Sequence record: PZ445451.1
Reading direction: 5' to 3' (one strand)
From: a phage
Length of the DNA: 64,000 bases
The translations under genes and the position numbers were made by a program. Of this stretch, positions 3,618 to 42,280 are shown piece by piece. Positions within the stretch are counted from its first letter, which is position 1. Every line of letters starts with the position of its first letter. The notes under the pieces are model-generated. The model worked only from the letters and a program-made list of their open reading frames with translations. It had not been told where the DNA came from and made no database searches.

Positions 3618-6392
3618 TTAGTTTATCAGTTTATTTATGTCTGGTAAAAGATTTATTTCACCTAAGAAATCACCTTCACCTTCCTCTAGCCAACTCTCAT
3701 ATGCTTGTGCATGATTATAGTTACCATCAAAAGAATCTGCAACAAATTTTTCTACAGTTTTTCGAGATGTGCCAGCGCCAAATACACCAAGTTTAATACT
3801 ATTGATCGGTAAAGTGGTGCTTGTTGGTACTTTCTCTGTTGCAACACGGTTGATATCTATAATCTCCTGTACGGTTGTGTTCCATTGTAAGCATTTAACA
3901 CAACGGGTATGCGCTACATACAGTAGGTTTCGCTCTGCCTCTTCCAGTCCTACCCATTCACCAGTTTTTTTATCATAATTGGAAGGAAAATCATTAGCAA
4001 CAATAACCTGATCCCACTCCAAACCTTTAGACTTGTGTGCTGTAGTCAATGTGACTTTTGCTGTAGGAGAATTTCTATGCGTTCTAAGTGTATGTGCTAT
4101 AGTGTTTGCCTTGCCAGAAACTACGATGTTTAACAAGCGTTTAGCATCTGGATCAGCCTCTGCACACTCAACAAATTCATTCCAGTCTGCGTAAGGTAAT
4201 ACAGTTTCATGTTTTACTTTCTCAATATCTCCTCTCCGAAGAGCATTAACACTATCTACCATAGAGATAAAATCCCTGGTATCTACGTTAATAATAATTT
4301 CTTCCCCATCTGCAATACGATCCATTGCCTCCATAAGCAAGGTTAAATTCTTGCGAAAGATGATAGTGTAAGGTTTTGTATAGTCTACAACATCTGATTT
4401 GTAGCTACCTACTACAGTATCAAAGCCTTTACCAACCAAAGGATGACGCAAAGGTTCTTTATCGCTTAAAATCATATTGGCAATGTTTGCCACTTTGGGG
4501 CCAAAACGGAAGCAAGCAGTTAATGGAAGCTCTGCCCCATACTTAGCTGTTTCAATCATCATATTAGAGCTACCTCTAAATTGATAAATGCAGTTGTGGC
4601 TAAGAATTTCATTGCCAAAGAAGTTAGCAGTATCCTCTACTTCAATATCATAATAGATACCCTCACTATCTACAATGTCCACAATCTCTTCTGCCGTTAC
4701 AGTATCACCATCTTTTACCAACACAGACATGCCTTTAAACAAACCCGCTGCCGGAATTAAGTTATATTTGGCACTGTTCACAGAGGACATGCATTCTTTT
4801 AAAGATGCAAACGGAACTATTTCAAGGATCTTTTGTGCAAAACTCAATGCTTCACGATAAGAATTGAAATATTTACGTACACGGTAACGACCTTCCAATT
4901 TAGCAGCACTTACGCTTACACCTGCTTTAATCAGTGAAGAATAGATCGGCATTTCACTTTCTGTCCACTCAAAACTAACTTGTGTTCCTTTACAACCTTG
5001 TGCTCGCAAAGTCACTGTTAGCATTTTTCTTTCATCTACTGCACAATTGATGCTGTGCCAGTGTGGATAAGCAAAATGATAATCTTTATCCTCTAAAAGT
5101 TTAAAACCATTTTGTCCGAATTGTTCAAAGATGTTATTGATCCTTTCTTGATTAATGCCGCGTGAACTTGCTTCAAATACACAAGTAGGAATGCCATATT
5201 GTAAACTGTATGCCATTTCTTTTTCCATAGCAGCTTCACGGTTTTCAACAATATCCAACACCCATAATTTCTGTGCTTTTTCAGAACGTGTACGTTGCCC
5301 CAGTTTAGAAAAACCTTCTTTATCATCGAATTTGTTAGTGATCCCTACTCGGAAACCTAAATCTTTCCTCCACATTAGGTATACCACCATCTGATCATCT
5401 TTCAGAACATAGGATGAAGCCCAAATACGATGGTTATGTGTCATATCTAAAGTTTTACCTGTGGCAGTAATAATATTCCTACCTTTTGTACGTGTAGATA
5501 AAGTCTTATTTGTTACTTTTCTAAATGTAATTTTACCATTAGAATAAGACTCTACCTTATCACCGATTTGTAGGTCTTTCATTGTAACCTGACCATTCTC
5601 GGTATTAAGTACCGTGTTTTCCGACACACATTGGAATTCATCGCCCACTACCACAATTTGTTTTGCAGATTTAGCATTTCGCAGAATAGACAAGAATGCA
5701 GGGTTAACATCCTGGAATTCATCACCAAAAATAATGTCATAACCAAGATCAGCACCTGATAACTCAAACAATTTTACATAGGTGTCATGCGTCATCAAAG
5801 TATCTGTGTTAGGATCAATGCGCTCTCGCCACAATTGTTTTGCATACTTAACTACTTCTGTAATTAGTTTGTGTTCGTTAATACCTTTTCTTTTAATATC
5901 TGCAAGATGTACACCAGGGAAATGTTTACGGCTGATAAAAGGATCATCCGAAAATTCAAACTTACCTACGGTTTGCTTGATCATTAAACCAATCATAGCA
6001 CGAGTTAAAAGTGTTTTCCCTCGTTTATCAATAAGATTATTAATCTTAAATTTCTTTGCTATCTCACTACCTGTACCTGCAACGTTAACATACTGTCCTT
6101 CTGGTCGTGACAGTTTTGCACGTAAACGATGATCCAGGAATTGATAGCAAATGGAATGCAATGTACGGCATTCTACATTTGGTGGCATCTTACGCCGTGC
6201 TTCTTCTGCCATGCTTTTATTGAAAGCTAAGTAAAGAATGCGATCTTCTGTACTGTTAGCCAGCAAATAAAGTGTTGACGTTTTGCCTGATCCAGATTTA
6301 GCTTGGATAGTTAAAAAACGATGGTCTGGAAAAGCCTCCTTAATAGCTGTTTGCTCTTCTGTTGGAGTAAAACTCAACTCTTTCTTAGCCAT
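3618..6392 (-). CDS. SF1 UvrD/PcrA-like DNA helicase, intein-containing precursor
   Basis: Track ORF; start moved to MAKKELSF (ATG 6392). Walker A AKSGSGKTSTL, motif II FGDEFQD, motif III GDEFQ|CIYQFRG split by an in-frame insert, C-terminal TTAHKSKGLEWDQVIV..LLYVAHTRCVK. Confidence 0.85.
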   Translation of the reverse strand: MAKKELSFTPTEEQTAIKEAFPDHRFLTIQAKSGSGKTSTLYLLANSTEDRILYLAFNKSMAEEARRKMPPNVECRTLHSICYQFLDHRLRAKLSRPEGQYVNVAGTGSEIAKKFKINNLIDKRGKTLLTRAMIGLMIKQTVGKFEFSDDPFISRKHFPGVHLADIKRKGINEHKLITEVVKYAKQLWRERIDPNTDTLMTHDTYVKLFELSGADLGYDIIFGDEFQDVNPAFLSILRNAKSAKQIVVVGDEFQCVSENTVLNTENGQVTMKDLQIGDKVESYSNGKITFRKVTNKTLSTRTKGRNIITATGKTLDMTHNHRIWASSYVLKDDQMVVYLMWRKDLGFRVGITNKFDDKEGFSKLGQRTRSEKAQKLWVLDIVENREAAMEKEMAYSLQYGIPTCVFEASSRGINQERINNIFEQFGQNGFKLLEDKDYHFAYPHWHSINCAVDERKMLTVTLRAQGCKGTQVSFEWTESEMPIYSSLIKAGVSVSAAKLEGRYRVRKYFNSYREALSFAQKILEIVPFASLKECMSSVNSAKYNLIPAAGLFKGMSVLVKDGDTVTAEEIVDIVDSEGIYYDIEVEDTANFFGNEILSHNCIYQFRGSSNMMIETAKYGAELPLTACFRFGPKVANIANMILSDKEPLRHPLVGKGFDTVVGSYKSDVVDYTKPYTIIFRKNLTLLMEAMDRIADGEEIIINVDTRDFISMVDSVNALRRGDIEKVKHETVLPYADWNEFVECAEADPDAKRLLNIVVSGKANTIAHTLRTHRNSPTAKVTLTTAHKSKGLEWDQVIVANDFPSNYDKKTGEWVGLEEAERNLLYVAHTRCVKCLQWNTTVQEIIDINRVATEKVPTSTTLPINSIKLGVFGAGTSRKTVEKFVADSFDGNYNHAQAYESWLEEGEGDFLGEINLLPDINKLIN
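4593..5630 (-). mobile_element. Intein (346 aa) inserted in helicase motif III
   Basis: Insert begins CVSENTVLNTENG (block A), has TxxH-like MTHNHRI (block B) and ends ..YYDIEVEDTANFFGNEILSHN followed by extein Cys. Removing it restores GDEFQCIYQFRG. Coordinates derived from track residue numbering (residues 268-613). Confidence 0.75.
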
Positions 6393-6393
6393 T

Positions 6394-6870
6394 TCAACCT
6401 CTCTTAATTTGTTTAACAAGCATAGGAACAAAATCTCGTTTTAAAATTTGTTCAATAATGTGATCAGGTAGCTGTTGGAAATTATAATTAAAAGCTACTG
6501 TCTCACCTTTAGGTGTTTCTACCCGCACATATAACATGTTACGAAGTTTATCCACTTGTGCTGTATATTCTAAACCACGTAATTGATGCATTGCAAACAT
6601 CAAATCATCAGGTTCAGTTTGGAATCTATCACTTGTCTGCATCAAGGATAAGGTAAAAGGTAGATTTTCCCTAAGAGCTACCTTCTTAGGCACTAATGAA
6701 GGGAAATACTCCCCAATAACTTCCTGTGTAAGCTGAATACACTCTTTTTCAAGCTGGTTTTGTTCCTTGAGTTCACAAACACTTTTTTGTAAAGTGTTAA
6801 CCTCTTTTTGCAAGGCTGCTAGTTGAGCATTTAACTTTCTTTTTTGATTACGACCAAAACGTTTAGACAT
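6394..6870 (-). CDS. Hypothetical protein (158 aa), coiled-coil N-terminus
   Basis: Track ORF; stop abuts helicase start. Confidence 0.55.
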   Translation of the reverse strand: MSKRFGRNQKRKLNAQLAALQKEVNTLQKSVCELKEQNQLEKECIQLTQEVIGEYFPSLVPKKVALRENLPFTLSLMQTSDRFQTEPDDLMFAMHQLRGLEYTAQVDKLRNMLYVRVETPKGETVAFNYNFQQLPDHIIEQILKRDFVPMLVKQIKRG

Positions 6871-6878
6871 ATTTCCCC

Positions 6879-7394
6879 CTAGTAAAACCCCTTAACAATT
6901 TGTATTAACTCGGCACAACGATTGACCAACTTTTCCTCGTACAATACACGTTGTGGCATATGTTGTATAATATACTCCATTTGCTCATGCCATGTCCACT
7001 TTTCTTTTTTGTCCGGGATAACATCACTAGCACGAGAATTATCTTTTAATGTTTGTATAATCCAATTGCTTGGAAAGTGCTCTCCACCTTTCTTAAATGG
7101 TTTATAGTGGCCTAGAGTGAATTGAGAATCCCCTGTTAGAGCACCCAATTTATTTAGATGGATAATCAAACTACGAAACACGTAGTATTCATAGATGTTA
7201 TCCACCGTATAGCAAGCATAATATTTCAAGATGCCCTTATCTCGCGGATACTTACCAACATCCAGATTGCACCAGTTGACATTTTCTGGATCATAGTGGT
7301 GTTCCTTAAGCCATATTTCTCTTTCATCAAAGTCTGGATATATTACCGCCCTGCTTACAGAGTCAACAAGTGGAGATTGAGCATCAAAAAACAT
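6879..7394 (-). CDS. Hypothetical protein (171 aa)
   Basis: Track ORF in tightly packed co-directional block. Confidence 0.55.
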   Translation of the reverse strand: MFFDAQSPLVDSVSRAVIYPDFDEREIWLKEHHYDPENVNWCNLDVGKYPRDKGILKYYACYTVDNIYEYYVFRSLIIHLNKLGALTGDSQFTLGHYKPFKKGGEHFPSNWIIQTLKDNSRASDVIPDKKEKWTWHEQMEYIIQHMPQRVLYEEKLVNRCAELIQIVKGFY

Positions 7395-7415
7395 TATATT
7401 TTCCTTATTGGTTTG

Positions 7416-7781
7416 TTAAACGTTTTCTAAATCTTTTAAGGCATTACCCAACGTTAGAACAATAACATCGTTTGCTGCCTCTTCCCCATTGATATTGGTG
7501 AAATTTGGTGTGACAAAAGTAACCATATAAAACTCGTCCACCTGGAAGATAGCAATAACACCATCCATCTTAACATCTTGACGAAAGGAAAAACCAATCA
7601 TCTTCTCTTGCAAAGGCATCTCCCCTTCCTTCATTACCGCTAGGGAGTTTTCAGGAATGTTATATTTATCTGCTCCGATGTAGATGTACGTAATGTTATC
7701 TTTATCGTGATGATACAGGGTTGCTTTTTCCATATCTAAACCTGACAGATCAAATACGTTAATTTCTTGTGTAGTCTTCAT
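7416..7781 (-). CDS. Hypothetical protein (121 aa)
   Basis: Track ORF; start moved to MKTTQ (ATG 7781) which has GGGAGGA SD and removes overlap with upstream gene. Confidence 0.5.
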   Translation of the reverse strand: MKTTQEINVFDLSGLDMEKATLYHHDKDNITYIYIGADKYNIPENSLAVMKEGEMPLQEKMIGFSFRQDVKMDGVIAIFQVDEFYMVTFVTPNFTNINGEEAANDVIVLTLGNALKDLENV

Positions 7782-8145
7782 AAATATCCTCCCAAATCCA
7801 ATAATCATCTGTGTAAGTAGGATGCCTTTTATCCCACTCTGTTCTAGCCCAAGCAACCGCTGCTACCAACACATCACCATGACAAGGTTGAGGTGAGCAG
7901 AAGCAAACTAAGTCTTTCCCTTCTAATTCTAACAAATCCTCAAGAGTGATTTTACCACAACGAATTTGTTCCCACAACCACTCTTTATATCTTTGTATAG
8001 TTGATCCTCGTGGTTCATCATCCTTTAACTTGAAAGGATTTGCAAACTTTGAGGCTTTTAACCCCATATGAGGCATAGCTCTGCCAATGTACACTGCACC
8101 TTCAGGTATTACTTTACCTAAGTGGTAAAAATTTAATACTTTCAT
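7759..8145 (-). CDS. DUF4326-like protein
   Basis: Track ORF; ..ANPFKL..YKEWLWEQI..GKDLVCFCSPQPCHGDVL resembles DUF4326 pattern (recalled, not searched). Confidence 0.5.
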   Translation of the reverse strand: MKVLNFYHLGKVIPEGAVYIGRAMPHMGLKASKFANPFKLKDDEPRGSTIQRYKEWLWEQIRCGKITLEDLLELEGKDLVCFCSPQPCHGDVLVAAVAWARTEWDKRHPTYTDDYWIWEDIYEDYTRN

Positions 8146-17890: not shown

Positions 17891-18101
17891 TATTTTGAAA
17901 ATTTTTATTTTTATAAAAAGGGGTGTGGGTTTCATGTACGGAAATTCACCCTCTGCACAGTATATCCAGAGTAAGTAGTATTCTACACCCTGTTAATAAA
18001 GTATTTAATTTGTTTGTTGGACTATGGTATCTGATCTTTAAAAGGCATACTATCTCTTAACTACTACTTATAACAAAACAGTAAAATCATTTTTATAAAA
18101 A

Positions 18102-18307
18102 GGACAAAATTATTTAAAGTTTTTACAGATTTTTGGATACAAATTTTGAAAATGAAAAGTTCAAGTTTGGTCAAAATTATTTAAAGTTTTTGTACGTATT
18201 TCTATCCAGATTTTGAAAATGAAAACTTCAATTTTTTAAAAATTCCCCAGTTTATTTAAAGTTTTTTTGCCTTTTTCCGTAGAAAAATCAAAAATGAAAA
18301 GTTCAAT
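18102..18307. repeat. Three tandem ~65-70 bp direct repeats (TATTTAAAGTTTTT ... TTTTGAAAATGAAAAGTTCAA)
   Basis: Seen directly: copies start near 18109, 18176 and 18249, in a convergent intergenic region. Confidence 0.7.
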
Positions 18308-18330
18308 TTCGTGTTTTTATAGGTGTGCGT

Positions 18331-18442
18331 ATGATAATCATTCTCATTTGTAAATGAGAATCATTATCATTTAATTATGTAAGTGATAATCATTCTCAGT
18401 AAGAGAATGAGAATCATTAGCAAATGAGAATTTTTCTCATTT
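18331..18442. promoter_or_regulatory. Array of 5 alternately oriented Fur-box-like palindromic motifs (TGATAATCATTCTCATT / AATGAGAATCATTATC)
   Basis: Seen directly; motif shares GATAATCATT core with the Fur box consensus GATAATGATAATCATTATC. Confidence 0.55.
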
Positions 18443-18703
18443 AGAGAATAACGCGCAGGGGCGGTGTTTGTCTCGCGCTCCCGTGTCCCCTCGCCATACA
18501 ATAAGAATAGCATAACCAACAACAAAAGCAAGCGATTATTTTTATCTTTACATTTCTTTACAAATTTATTTTAGACGAGCTACCGGCGATCAACCTTCCA
18601 ACCAGTGCCCCCTGGTATGTTAGCCCCGCCTTTACGCCGTGGGGGTGGCGTTTCCTCTTCTGTATGTAAAACAGTATAAGCCCGATCCCTGGGCTTGTCA
18701 AGA

Positions 18704-18970
18704 TTATTTTTTGTTTTCTTGCCAGGAAAGGACACCTAACCAAAAATACATATCGCCCCGCGCCCCTGGCGGGATCTTGCTTTCCCCGCCGCCACTGCAA
18801 GCCCATAAATAACCATCAGCGAACGGATCAAAATGTTCTATCTCTTCCACCTTATGATCGCCCAGGTTGAGAACGGTTTCAATCTTTAAGCCCGTTGCGC
18901 TTGCTACCTGGTGCACCGTGCCGCCTTGCCAGCCCAATGAGTGCATGAGATGTAAAGGAGTATTTGTCAT
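18704..18970 (-). CDS. Hypothetical protein (88 aa) in a GC-rich segment
   Basis: Track ORF with AAAGGAG SD; local GC content clearly higher than the rest of the window. Confidence 0.45.
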   Translation of the reverse strand: MTNTPLHLMHSLGWQGGTVHQVASATGLKIETVLNLGDHKVEEIEHFDPFADGYLWACSGGGESKIPPGARGDMYFWLGVLSWQENKK

Positions 18971-19234
18971 GGTATCGCCCTTTCTTTGATGTGCGCCCTG
19001 GTTGGCGCGGTAGAAAGATAATAGCCGTTTCCTTTATAGATAGCAAGCAAAAAAGAAATGAAAAAAGATTAAAAATGGTTGACGTTACCAGGATAATAAC
19101 ATATTATTCATCTTGTCGAGGGGGGCAAGGCACAACGACAATAAATAAAAGGCGGGTGCAATGCAGGACGGGCAAAGGTGAGGATCTCCATAATCCACCG
19201 TCACAATAACATTACTTATAAAAGGTTGATAACG

Positions 19235-19330
19235 ATGATCAAGAAAGAAAACAGCTTGACGGTTGGAACGATTAACGCTATCATTCTAGCCGTTCCATTT
19301 TGGATTGTAGTAGCGGTTGTTATTTTCTAA
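19235..19330 (+). CDS. Small hydrophobic peptide (31 aa, MIKKENSLTVGTINAIILAVPFWIVVAVVIF)
   Basis: Manual ORF; single TM-like segment; weak SD. Confidence 0.3.
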   Translation: MIKKENSLTVGTINAIILAVPFWIVVAVVIF

Positions 19331-28477: not shown

Positions 28478-28861
28478 ATGAGCAATATCATCAACCTGGC
28501 AGCGACTGTAAACGGTAAAGATTTTAACGGCGCTGTAGACCGTGATCCTATGTGGTGCTTATCAGTGTTTAAAGGCGACCTGGTTGAAGTTAGAACAACC
28601 GAAGGCTATAGCGATGATTATAAATGCGAGATCCATTTACATAACTGGTACACGGGGAAAACTTATGCGCTGAATCACGCATTTATCGGGAAAATTGAAT
28701 ATCGCGAAATGATCGACGAAGAAACGGGGCAAGATTTTAGCGATTATGTTTATATCCGTTCAGAAACATTAGCCGAACGCTTGATCGAGAAAATGAAAGC
28801 AAAAAATAAAATTAATTTAGCTCATTGGCTTGATATAACAAATGATCCGGCTTACAAGTAA
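28478..28861 (+). CDS. Hypothetical protein (127 aa)
   Basis: Track ORF; ACGAGGAA SD. Confidence 0.55.
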   Translation: MSNIINLAATVNGKDFNGAVDRDPMWCLSVFKGDLVEVRTTEGYSDDYKCEIHLHNWYTGKTYALNHAFIGKIEYREMIDEETGQDFSDYVYIRSETLAERLIEKMKAKNKINLAHWLDITNDPAYK

Positions 28862-28876
28862 ATAACATTTCACACC

Positions 28877-28903
28877 AGGGCGCACAAAGCGCCCTTTCTT
28901 TTT
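28877..28903 (+). terminator. Rho-independent terminator (AGGGCGC-ACAAA-GCGCCCT-TTCTTTTT)
   Basis: Seen directly; ends the small-gene array. Confidence 0.7.
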
Positions 28904-29106
28904 ACCTAAATAAAGATGATAGCTTTTACCTATCAAAAACGTTCACCGAAAAAAGTGAATAGATCGCGGTATCGAGCTAATCAAGGAGCAGATGAACAAC
29001 CATACCATGAAGATCATAAGGCGCTTACAACGTGTTTTAGACCGCTTATTTTTAATTTCTCAATGTAACTATCGGGCAAAAACAGCCTTTTTCTTGTCTT
29101 TCCTCT

Positions 29107-29184
29107 TAAATGATAATCATTCTTATTTATAGCTGATTATTTATGCAATAAACTGCATAATGCAATAATGATAATCATTCTTAA
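29107..29184. promoter_or_regulatory. Two Fur-box-like sites (AAATGATAATCATTCTTA; ATAATGATAATCATTCTTA)
   Basis: Seen directly; second copy matches 16 of 18 positions of Fur consensus ATAATGATAATCATTATC. Confidence 0.55.
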
Positions 29185-29542
29185 CTTATGACCATCTAAC
29201 CTATAAAATAATAAGTTATCTAACTAAATTAAAACTAATTATCCCACCTTTATTTATAACTTACTTTTACTATCTCATTGATAACCTTATATTAAACAAC
29301 AATAACCAATATAAATCATTACTAAGCTAACTATAATCTATCTAACCCTTAAAACTATAACTATAATCTATCGAATTGTTGCACAAAGTAACTATTAAAT
29401 TGTTAGTAACTTTACTAAATAATTAATATCCTATCTATTTATGATCTAATCTTTACCTTACTATCTATTACCTAAATAACCATTTCATACAGAAATTATT
29501 TCATACAATAACTATAACAAGAAATATAATTCGCAAGCGTAT

Positions 29543-29703
29543 CATTAGCAGCCTATGCCGGACACATAGGCGGCTAATAATAACGCAACTACACACCCCA
29601 CATAATAACCATCACCGATAGTTATTATTTGTGCTTATGTAGCTTGCAACAATTGCAAGCGCAACAATATACATGGTATATTGTATCCCTTACATTGTTG
29701 CGG
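29543..29703. repeat. Cluster of nested inverted repeats (13-bp stem ATTAGCAGCCTATG/CATAGGCGGCTAAT; CTTGCAACAATTGCAAG; CGCAACAAT...ATTGTTGCG enclosing ATATAC-ATG-GTATAT)
   Basis: Seen directly in the 1.8-kb non-coding region. Confidence 0.6.
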
Positions 29704-30042
29704 TGCGTTATTATTAGCTAATGTTTGGAACATTGGCTATAATATAAGCTACATATAATAAGCTATACAATAATAAACATAATGAATAATGACACTGATG
29801 ATCATAATGCGCCACCTTCCAGGGGGCGCTATGTGAACACAAAGAAATCTTTCTTGTCAAGAAAAATATCACCATTATTGCGCAAAATTATTTATATCTG
29901 AACAGATGATTTTTCATACTATTGCCCCCTATAGTATCCCTATTTGTTGTAATGTATTCCCCTATTTGTTGAGCCTACTCTCTTAAAAGCGCAATAAATT
30001 AGAATTATCTTGATTTTTAGGTAGTTTTATAGTATAGAAAAT

Positions 30043-30066
30043 ATGCAAATGATAATCATTATCAGC
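30043..30066. promoter_or_regulatory. Fur-box-like site (GCAAATGATAATCATTATC)
   Basis: Seen directly; AATGATAATCATTATC is a 16/16 match to the 3' part of the Fur consensus. Confidence 0.6.
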
Positions 30067-30229
30067 TATCTTCCACAGGTGGCACTATTTCACGCCAGAT
30101 CATTTCATTTGGCAAGGTGTATATAGATGTTTAGAAATGCCAAGCCATTGATTTACTTAGAATTTATCTGTTTTGTTGTGAGTAGTGCCTTTCTTGCTCA
30201 GAAAATAATCAAAAGTCTTATAAGTCATT

Positions 30230-30264
30230 GAATGATAATGCAAATGATAATTATTCTCATTGAT
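30230..30264. promoter_or_regulatory. Fur-box-like site (GAATGATAATGCAAATGATAATTATTCTCATT)
   Basis: Seen directly. Confidence 0.5.
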
Positions 30265-30378
30265 ATTTGAGGGGGACGGTCGGCAGAAATCGGGGGCGCT
30301 AAAAATCGCGTTAAGCACCTCTCGCAAGCGAGCAGTATTTTGCGGCAAGTTATTGATATTATTGGCTTTACGCTTATG

Positions 30379-30485
30379 GAAAGGGGGTGTGTCGAAATAA
30401 ATCGGGTATACCGGAAAATTTTTGTGGCATAGATATTTATTTGTCTATATTATGTACAAAGGGGTGTGTTAAAAATAATAGGTAT
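30379..30485. repeat. Two copies of AAAGGGGTGTGT..AAATAA..GGTATA motif about 73 bp apart
   Basis: Seen directly; third partial copy at ~17919. Confidence 0.45.
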
Positions 30486-30717
30486 ATATAGAATAATTGA
30501 TAGGGAAATCCTATACTAATCCCTCCATTAATGATGTTCCTAGGTTGCTGTTCTTGTAACAGATGAAAAGACGCTGTATGATGTGTGGCATGAGACGTAA
30601 ATTTATAAGATGCAAATAATGCTTGCATTGAATAGAAATGTCTGTATAGTGGTTTGCATACCGCGCACGACGCGTTTCCATTTTCAATAAAATGTTAGCA
30701 TTATGGGGAGGTAGAAA

Positions 30718-31179
30718 ATGAGACAACTATCTATACTGGAAGCACATGTGCAATGTGTTGCAGATTATGTCAAAGAACACTCAAGTTTGTTGGATGTAAC
30801 CTGTGCAGTGCAAAATGATGTAGGTATTGTCTGTGTGCGACATATCTTATCTGAAACTCGTTATGAAGTATTTCGTGCCAAGTTGTTTGGATGTGATCAA
30901 GTGCATGTAAACTTCTTGGATTCCAATTTTCGTTATGCTTTAGAAAATATTGATGATTATCTTCCTTGCTCTCCGACCGGATATGTGATGATAGCAGCAA
31001 ATGAAGTAACACCAAACAACAGTGAGCGGGAAACTTTGTTACGGAAGAAAATACGCCAACTGCAAGTGTTGAATGAACTGAAAGAAGAGATTGAAAAAGA
31101 ACTGAAAGAAGATTTTGGTATGCTTCCAAAAGACGCTTTGAAATGGTTTGATGAACTAGGAGAGGAAAGTTATGAATAA
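30718..31179 (+). CDS. Hypothetical protein (153 aa); N-terminus paralogous to 36932 gene
   Basis: Track ORF; GGGGAGG SD; shares ..H.SLL.V...V....G.V.V.H.LS.T.Y.VF....... with 36932..37183. Confidence 0.55.
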   Translation: MRQLSILEAHVQCVADYVKEHSSLLDVTCAVQNDVGIVCVRHILSETRYEVFRAKLFGCDQVHVNFLDSNFRYALENIDDYLPCSPTGYVMIAANEVTPNNSERETLLRKKIRQLQVLNELKEEIEKELKEDFGMLPKDALKWFDELGEESYE

Positions 31180-41847: not shown

Positions 41848-41926
41848 ATGACTTTACTAGAGAGTATCGTAGTGTTAATCATCTTTATCATTGTTGTCAT
41901 AGGATATTTTACAGAAGACTAAAATA

Positions 41927-41960
41927 AAGCCCCTAGAATCGCTTCTAGGGGCTTTTGTTT
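41927..41960 (+). terminator. Rho-independent terminator (AGCCCCTAGAA-TCGC-TTCTAGGGGCT-TTTGTTTG)
   Basis: Seen directly; end of plus-strand block. Confidence 0.65.
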
Positions 41961-42022
41961 GCATTAGATAGGGAAACGTATTACTAAAATAAAAAGTGCG
42001 TTAGAATTCGTTACAGGAGGTT

Positions 42023-42280
42023 TTAGGAATGCATAAAATCTTCTTCAGGGCAGGTTGAGAGATAAGAGATGCACGTTGGGACAACAACAACATTGTCTTT
42101 AAGGTTTTCAACCAAGCCTTTTGTAATCCCAGCCACTGCCCCGTTAATATCTGCTTGACGGATACCAAAGCCTTGTTGTGCGGATAGATAACAAAATCCC
42201 TCACCTTTCTGTTGATTGTTATTGAAGTAATAAACGTAGTGCATCATAAAATGGTCTTTAACGATTTGTTCTGTGGTCAT
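42023..42280 (-). CDS. Hypothetical protein (85 aa)
   Basis: Track ORF. Confidence 0.5.
   Translation of the reverse strand: MTTEQIVKDHFMMHYVYYFNNNQQKGEGFCYLSAQQGFGIRQADINGAVAGITKGLVENLKDNVVVVPTCISYLSTCPEEDFMHS

Follow-up and report, generated by a model that had tools for sequence, protein, structure and literature searches.

A gene-free gap in Escherichia phage PaulScherrer as the probable junction of its chromosome ends

What function, if any, is served by the AT-rich, gene-free gap (28862-30717) in the 64,000-nucleotide stretch of phage DNA analysed here, which we call the window? The initial annotation had read its repeats and palindromes as a candidate replication origin, packaging or terminase site, or non-coding RNA (ncRNA). 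The 2-kb stretch around the gap is 100% identical to Escherichia phage PaulScherrer (Bas60, MZ501100.1), a phi92-like member of the genus Justusliebigvirus in the Stephanstirmvirinae (window position = record position - 64675), and a homologous region is present in 127-140 phage records. We propose that the gap joins the right end of the linear virion chromosome to its left end, as seen in a rotated assembly. Its composition is as first described, with 30% G+C against ~37% in the window, the lowest G+C of the window and a local reversal of GC skew. It is not the only long stretch free of open reading frames (ORFs), as had been claimed, since 17891-18557 is another, and its supposed position between two terminated operons is half right: a terminator was located in the upstream flank (28877-28895 in the promoter and terminator scan), whereas on the downstream side an operon begins. 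Every relative examined has a gap of 1.5-2 kb in this same position. In MZ501100.1 it is empty except for two tiny hypothetical coding sequences (28992-29132 and 29782-29901), which we reject as genes: both are unconserved in relatives and absent from the curated phi92 record, and in Phapecoctavirus the first has lost its start codon and the second has an interrupted reading frame. A 34-aa hydrophobic ORF (30127-30231), also broken in Phapecoctavirus, was rejected as well, and ARAGORN found no tRNA or tmRNA.

The terminal repeat, which the initial annotation had overlooked, is identified through relatives with mapped ends. In a distant-mode search, the phi92 reference record (NC_023693) was found to end inside the gap, under a feature named 'right end direct terminal repeat'. 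This record is linear and is annotated with direct terminal repeats of 343 bp each (DTR-L, 1-343; DTR-R, 148270-148612). Aligned to the window, both phi92 ends define a repeat whose first letters are AGCCTACTCTCTTAAAAG and whose last letters are AAAAATCGCGTTA, and the phi92 repeats differ from the window copy by four substitutions and one single-base indel. Synteny extends to both sides, with a gp248-like gene upstream of the gap and gene 001 downstream. The record of Schickermooser, which belongs to another genus (Phapecoctavirus), has its ends at exactly the same two alignment columns as phi92; its repeat is 328-329 bp long (published as 328 bp, PMC6563267), and, independently, the BME3 repeat was determined as 342 bp by PhageTerm (PMC12210895). 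According to one published paper, direct terminal repeats end Stephanstirmvirinae genomes. BME3, VEcB, PD06, PHB05 and many Phapecoctavirus have independent records that start or end in the gap region. In the BASEL short-read assemblies of the related phages Bas51 and Bas54 the terminal-repeat region lies mid-record, at ~93-96 kb (preprint), and the gap of the PaulScherrer record is at the same relative place.

Since a repeat occupies the positions of the phi92 and Schickermooser termini and such repeats have been published, we consider it very likely that the gap is a chromosome-end junction, and homology supports the packaging or terminase-site option among those first proposed. At the level of sequence, homology to mapped termini establishes the position, extent and boundaries of the repeat. 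The window copy resembles the phi92, BME3 and Schickermooser repeats in being homologous (~95% to phi92), in its flanking genes, in length (342 vs 343 bp) and in having identical boundaries; it differs in that rotation of the PaulScherrer record has put the terminus in its interior, and in that its ends are deduced from relatives. In the type phage, phi92, a terminal repeat junction of this kind had been annotated before. Elements discussed below that appear undescribed, with functions as yet unproven, are the boundary motif, the covarying palindrome, the conserved Fur operators and the copy in an E. coli island, and we found no mention of the boundary motif, palindrome or Fur boxes in the published descriptions of the phi92, BME3 and Schickermooser repeats.

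We derived the anatomy and conservation of the gap from an alignment of seven genomes, with block identities calculated across five divergent lineages of E. coli, Klebsiella and Citrobacter phages (Table 1). Comparison establishes, again at sequence level, the conservation of the boundaries, the Fur boxes and the pairing of the palindrome. Conservation is highest in the terminator, in Fur box 1, in the core of the palindrome and at both repeat boundaries. The left boundary follows the pattern TGTTGAGC....T.TCTTAAA, invariant in 7 lineages, and TGTTG^AGC at the left and CGCGTTA^AGC at the right are also invariant in 7 lineages (the caret marks the boundary). Both share the core GTTR^AGC (TTGTTG^AGCC and CGCGTTA^AGCA), and 30299-30323 at the right boundary retains ~0.9 identity across lineages.

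Table 1 Features of the gap and of a second non-coding region, in window coordinates (promoter-like elements are predictions)
Feature	Position	Strand	Description
Right arm, non-coding	1.1 kb left of the repeat		terminator, two Fur boxes, G-depleted tract, nested palindrome
Intrinsic terminator of the upstream operon	28877-28905	+	7-bp stem with 6 G-C pairs, then T-run; kept in 7/7 lineages
Conserved block GAAAAAAGTGAATAGATCGCGGTATCGAGCTAATC	28948-28985		~0.9 identity in 5 divergent lineages
Fur box 1 TTAAATGATAATCATTCTT	29106-29124		would form the spacer of a weak rightward promoter-like element, CTTAAA-17-TATAGC
Small palindrome TATGCA-N6-TGCATA	29142-29159		between Fur boxes 1 and 2; in 7/7 aligned lineages
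Fur box 2 AATAATGATAATCATTCTT	29164-29182		16/19 to consensus
G-depleted AT-rich tract	29190-29525	+	336 bp; G 3.9%, C 18%, A+T 78%
Nested palindrome	29543-29718		five helices, 176 bp; 254 bp left of the repeat
H1	29543-29577		
Long-range stem S	29573-29587 with 29704-29718		perfect, 15 bp
H2	29602-29628		
H3	29642-29660		
H4	29661-29701		
Variable spacer	29719-29971		between palindrome and repeat
Left boundary site TTTGTTG^AGCCTACTCTCTTAAAAGCG	29965-29992	+	caret = start of the phi92 and Schickermooser records
Direct terminal repeat homologue	29972-30313	+	342 bp; aligned to phi92, BME3 and Schickermooser termini
Promoter-like P1	30010-30038	+	inside the repeat; -35 TTGATT, 17-nt spacer, -10 TATAGA; predicted
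Fur box 3 GCAAATGATAATCATTATC	30045-30063		17/19 to consensus; ~+1 to +19 of P1
Fur box 4, overlapping double site GATAATGCAAATGATAATTATTCTCATTGAT	30234-30264		inside the repeat
Right boundary module CATTGATATTTGAGGGGGACGGTCGGCAGAAATCGGGGG...AAAATCGCGTTA^AGCACCTCTCGCAA	30256-30327	+	includes 25-nt G-rich unit copy 1 (30269-30293)
Leader	400 bp right of the repeat		promoter-like repeats before gene 001
25-nt G-rich unit copy 2 AAGGGGGTGTGTCGAAATAAATCGG	30381-30405	+	preceded by TTGATA-16-TATGGA, a putative promoter
G-rich unit copy 3 and conserved block AAAATAATAGGTATATATAGAATAATTGATAGGGAAATCCTAT	30458-30514	+	promoter-like TTAAAA-17-AATAAT
First gene after the terminus, phi92 gene 001 homologue	30718-31179	+	putative DNA-binding protein; ribosome-binding site GGGGAGG (30706-30712)
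Further AAAAGGGGTGTG motif	17917-17927		second non-coding region
Three tandem direct repeats, 67-75 nt	18089-18309		71-73% identical, ...TTATTTAAAGTTTTT...TTTTGAAAATGAAAAGTTCAA...; just upstream of the Fur-box cluster
Fur-box cluster	18327-18421		upstream of the conserved block
Conserved DNA block, ncRNA-like gene	18423-18715	+	in 247 phage records

The Fur-like boxes reported by the initial annotation were recovered as four sites in the gap (29106, 29164, 30045 and 30240). When the whole window was scanned with the 19-bp enterobacterial consensus GATAATGATAATCATTATC, six matches with at most three mismatches were found, where 0.03 are expected (the 30045 site counts twice among them, once per strand), and 30 with at most five mismatches, against ~5 in Markov shuffles; the boxes in the gap match the consensus at 17/19, 16/19, 15/19 and 14/19 positions. 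Although the flanks diverge, the box positions are conserved in Klebsiella phages and Phapecoctavirus and, in part, in the Citrobacter phage. Boxes 1 and 4 are retained in Phapecoctavirus and Klebsiella phages (in Citrobacter phage Tr1 the former was not detected and the latter is deleted), box 2 is kept in Justusliebigvirus and a Klebsiella phage and is weaker in Phapecoctavirus, and 4 of 5 lineages have box 3. Among the Escherichia and Klebsiella phage records of our collection, none was found to encode a Fur homologue, so the Fur protein of the host would be the reader. We think that host Fur probably binds these predicted sites; that binding has a regulatory effect that matters is a more tentative proposal, less likely than not. 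We found no literature on Fur boxes in these phages.

An iron-related function could in principle account for the locus by itself: boxes carried on replicating phage DNA might titrate host Fur and so derepress iron uptake, or might gate the early promoters by iron status, with the repeat being incidental. The four strong boxes of the gap together with 4-6 more at 18327-18421, the conservation of their positions across genera, a conserved Fur-box promoter before a conserved ncRNA-like gene (Vequintavirinae included) and the lack of a phage Fur homologue would all fit such a sink or switch. Yet the best conserved blocks include the repeat boundaries and the palindrome, not the Fur boxes alone, Citrobacter Tr1 does without box 4 and the terminal gap of Bas51 without any box, and the binding of the boxes is itself predicted from sequence. 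Plaques also form on rich medium, where Fur is active, so that Fur repression is not the sole control of early genes. We regard this explanation as unlikely, and the terminus junction as the better account of the gap.

Two further places carry Fur-like boxes. In a distant relative (IMGVR_UViG_2595698946_000001, 6050-7800), a syntenic gap has several of them together with large inverted repeats; its flanking protein is 78% identical, its G+C is higher and the gap cannot be aligned to the window. At 5062-5090, inside a 937-aa minus-strand ORF (3618-6431), a perfect DnaA box TTATCCACA on the minus strand overlaps a Fur-like box CAAAATGATAATCTTTATC (16/19), which is probably a chance occurrence.

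A replication origin, instead of or besides a terminus, would use the same elements differently, with transcription from Fur-box promoters running into the AT-rich, strand-asymmetric tract and the palindrome opening the duplex and loading the primase-helicase of the phage. The low G+C, the skew reversal and the conserved palindrome could all be read in this way, as could the 336-bp tract with 3.9% G, where the window reaches its longest G-free run and where the direct repeats TAACTATAATCTATC (94% identical, at 29328 and 29358 as first reported) are found. T7 also has secondary origins at promoters beside both genome ends. However, no DnaA box occurs in 28862-30717, and the 11 in the window are at chance level. 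The tract with its iteron-like direct repeats is the least conserved segment (0.47 identity); what is common to relatives is its composition. The GC skew of the window simply tracks the direction of transcription, as reported for rV5 too. We consider an origin unlikely, and the chromosome-end junction remains our preferred reading.

The palindromes noted by the initial annotation prove to be parts of one nested structure. The inverted repeat ATTAGCAGCCTATG/CATAGGCGGCTAAT has 18-nt arms with 89% complementarity (29543-29577), CTTGCAACAATTGCAAG lies at 29643-29659, and CGCAACAAT...ATTGTTGCG encloses ATATAC-ATG-GTATAT at 29660-29702; like the other repeats and the Fur-like boxes, they were found where they had been placed or within a few bases of it. 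The strongest palindrome of all, the perfect long-range stem S, had been overlooked. The interior contains an invariant CAACTACAC and, inverted, GGGGTGTG at 29592-29599. Relative to shuffles, folding of 29530-29725 gave z = -5.6 for plus-strand RNA, -8.4 for minus-strand RNA and -7.1 for DNA. Our comparison took in 19 homologues, drawn from phages of E. coli, Klebsiella and Citrobacter as well as from contigs of IMG/VR and of metagenomes; in these, 87% of the cells of the five-helix structure pair. Two-sided (compensatory) changes occur at 16 pairs, a number reached in 0 of 500 shuffles, and slid controls give 3-6 pairs. In stem S, 285 of 285 cells are Watson-Crick, with four covarying positions.

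The variable pairs switch from one Watson-Crick pair to another and one-sided states of the G-U type are almost absent; Rfam gave no match at the gathering threshold over the whole window and only chance-level matches at E <= 5 over both non-coding regions; and the promoter and terminator scan placed no promoter or terminator around the palindrome. On these grounds a DNA-level structure fits better than an RNA. The alternative, that 29540-29720 encodes an ncRNA or acts as RNA in regulation (for example as an attenuator or a processing site), draws on the very low folding energy, which is best on the minus strand, on the 16 covarying pairs, and on a few plus-strand A-C mismatches that would be G-U on the minus strand. 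These mismatches trace to about two events and show no significant strand bias. Near-absent one-sided states and an unbroken stem S are what is expected if both DNA strands stay self-complementary, and with neither an Rfam family nor a bracketing promoter-terminator pair in the searches above we hold an RNA function to be improbable. Of the three options first proposed, the packaging or terminase site is thus the one upheld by homology to mapped termini, and the origin (no DnaA boxes) and the ncRNA (no Rfam match, DNA-like covariation) are not.

A similar nested palindrome is found in the terminal gap of the rV5-like Bas51 (Escherichia phage WalterGehring, MZ501111.1) at record positions 94607-94758. 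Its perfect closing stem is 18 bp long, the arms are 116 nt apart (as in the window), its DNA fold has z = -9.7, and an inner hairpin, AACCATCACC...GTGATAGTT, resembles H2. Homology in sequence between the two palindromes was not established: the alignment is unconvincing, and only the architecture and one hairpin are alike.

That the gap is a functionless spacer or the remains of genes between operons can be dismissed: two short ORFs are annotated in it and 29191-29525 and 29726-29960 are poorly conserved, but a gap of this size is retained at the same place among relatives and combines blocks of ~0.9 identity across genera with compensatory changes and mapped genome ends.

Taken as a whole, we consider a terminus junction with cis-acting packaging DNA and Fur-coupled early promoters the best explanation of the gap, with a probability of roughly 0.8. 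Three steps may be envisaged: (i) Cleavage and duplication. Terminase would cut concatemers at TTGTTG^AGC on the left and at CGCGTTA^AGC on the right, and the repeat, present once per concatemer unit, would be copied so that it stands at both ends of each packaged genome. (ii) Provision of cis-acting DNA. The gene-free right arm would supply the sequences for packaging and duplication, and the palindrome, as a cruciform or snap-back hairpin, might assemble the packaging machinery or prime duplication of the repeat. A packaging or duplication role for the palindrome is possible, at somewhat less than even odds. (iii) Early expression. If the left end enters first, the repeat and leader would carry the first host-type promoters, which would fire on entry and express gene 001 and the early genes. 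The four putative Fur operators, two of them in the repeat, may couple some of these promoters to the iron status of the host, with Fur damping a subset of left-end promoters when iron is plentiful.

Among the promoter-like elements, P1 has the same spacer length and the same TA in its -10 across 5 lineages (TTGATT-17-TAnnnA), and its -35 block is conserved. The tandem AAAGGGGTGTGT units of the leader were confirmed at 30381 and 30458, with a degenerate third copy at 30269, and the conserved promoter-like block of the leader spans 30469-30514.

Several points weigh against parts of this explanation. The ends of PaulScherrer are deduced from relatives at ~94-95% identity and not from its own reads. 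GTTRAGC, which we rejected as a unique cut-site signature, has 8 copies in the window (15 expected), so that recognition must use more context. The stringent promoter and terminator scan showed no enrichment over shuffles and did not pick up P1, which makes the promoter assignments weak. The terminal gap of Bas51 has a palindrome and no Fur box, and Fur sites are therefore no general requirement of this type of terminus. For the palindrome, the data fit a role in replication or transcription as well as one in packaging.

Known systems offer partial parallels. In systems of the T7/T3 type, duplication of the terminal repeat is necessary during packaging. Their junction consists of a 160-230-bp terminal repeat with pac sequences and promoters beside the ends, and processing is proposed to pass through a hairpin intermediate, a model reportedly put forward for T7 by Chung, Nardone and Hinkle in 1990. 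The present locus likewise has a short non-coding repeat that would need duplication, predicted tandem host-type early promoters just inside the left end and, on the right-end side, an inverted repeat to the left of the repeat (the palindrome, 254 bp away; the T7 counterpart is the one proposed to form the hairpin), although this last likeness is one of resemblance only. It differs from T7/T3 in sharing no sequence similarity, in belonging to a myovirus of ~150 kb without promoters for a phage RNA polymerase, and in having a large palindrome with several hairpins. Its terminase gene is located outside the window. The cos site of lambda combines a nicking site (cosN), terminase-binding repeats (cosB) and an IHF site; here too the cut sites are flanked by short repeats (the 25-nt G-rich units) and the packaging region holds putative sites for a host protein, whereas the 342-bp repeat contrasts with 12-nt cohesive ends and the host protein would be Fur rather than IHF. 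A role of Fur in packaging would be pure speculation. With the T-shaped, snap-back-priming inverted terminal repeats of parvoviruses and adeno-associated virus, the palindrome has in common a long stem with smaller hairpins near a genome end and pairing maintained as DNA; the analogy is one of shape alone, as this palindrome occurs once, in an internal position 254 bp from the repeat, and belongs to a double-stranded DNA phage. Among iron-regulated phage genes are the Fur-controlled stx1 of Shiga-toxin prophages and the DtxR-controlled tox of corynephage beta. These are similarly operators of a host iron regulator on phage DNA, but in those temperate phages a toxin gene has a single operator, whereas the phage here is virulent and has multiple boxes, located both at its genome ends and at an ncRNA-like locus.

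The junction has practical consequences. The genome ends of PaulScherrer can be placed without new sequencing, with 29972 and 30313 corresponding to record positions 94647 and 94988, and MZ501100.1 could be re-oriented and its two spurious small coding sequences dropped. The comparison also defines conserved cis elements of terminal-repeat packaging, namely two cut-site motifs, a covarying palindrome and repeated G-rich units, which a large family of therapeutic-candidate coliphages possesses and which are sequences to keep or exploit in phage engineering, in transducing particles and in the interpretation of end mapping. Functional Fur boxes would provide a case of host-iron sensing by a strictly lytic phage, a point of relevance to how phages behave in an iron-limited gut or bloodstream. 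More speculatively, phi92-like phages may wire Fur into their programme (rV5-like phages at one locus), with operators in and next to the terminal repeat covering the earliest promoters to reach the cell and a Fur-box promoter driving the small-RNA-like gene at ~18455-18715, the palindrome may nucleate terminase or prime duplication, and an E. coli island may be a satellite that borrows the packaging site. This combination as a whole is doubtful; were it true, iron status would be read at the very start of infection, and there would be a handle on how phages other than T7 regenerate short terminal repeats.

The island in question was found through a homologue of the right end of the repeat in 121 of 5426 complete E. 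coli genomes; strain KSC1031 is one example of a carrier of the island. The homologue covers 73 nt of the right boundary module, including the cut-site motif (GCGTTG AGC at the cut position), and is accompanied by a second, colinear piece of 50 nt. In NZ_CP019560.1 (~1457265-1466060), the matches correspond to window positions 30106-30155, 30256-30327 and 41921-42025. The island is ~8.8 kb long, lies beside the thiM thiamine pyrophosphate (TPP) riboswitch and encodes an integrase, GmrSD, helix-turn-helix (HTH) proteins and a 179-aa serine recombinase, for which we found only generic resolvases of <=50% identity and none from Stephanstirmvirinae. It also has a 2-kb unannotated stretch with TTGATAGGGGTA iterons; a link between these and the phage block TTGATAGGGA was rejected, as the phage has a single copy and the likeness is at chance level. 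The island has neither the left-boundary motif nor the H3 palindrome. The presence of the 73-nt module in a mobile island indicates that the right boundary module behaves as a discrete unit, and the island could be a satellite or decoy that copies the packaging site of its helper. Among the database records, five labelled 'Campylobacter phage' (MG0656xx) are ~95% identical to this E. coli phage region and are probably mislabelled or contaminant assemblies.

On its left flank, the terminator of the gap comes after a gp30.8-like gene (28478-28861). On its right, many Justusliebigvirus relatives either carry additional small genes (0.3-0.9 kb) after the leader and ahead of the first gene or lack a gene 001 homologue there, as in phage inny, where positions 4828-5563 correspond to window ~30660-30717; the first left-end genes therefore form a variable cassette.

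A second non-coding region (17891-19235) contains three repeats of 67-75 nt and 4-6 overlapping Fur boxes. The conserved block downstream of the boxes extends to Vequintavirinae, with CR8 and Klebsiella, Salmonella, Pectobacterium and Serratia phages among those that carry it, and in Klebsiella phage K23PH08C2 its homologue lies within a tRNA array. A promoter-like arrangement of TTGAAT, Fur box and CAGAAT is conserved upstream of the block, a hairpin and T-run follow it, and its indels are not multiples of three. No Rfam match (to E <= 5) or tRNA match was obtained for it, and RNAalifold detected no two-sided covariation, which is uninformative because the core is nearly invariant. From this arrangement, the block (~18455-18715) is a candidate for a Fur-repressed small RNA gene. 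A host origin of the Fur cluster was rejected, as 18300-18480 has no match in E. coli. Along with the ncRNA-like element, many phages conserve an 88-aa gene on the minus strand (18704-18970, bas60_0113), which lies within an otherwise plus-strand block.

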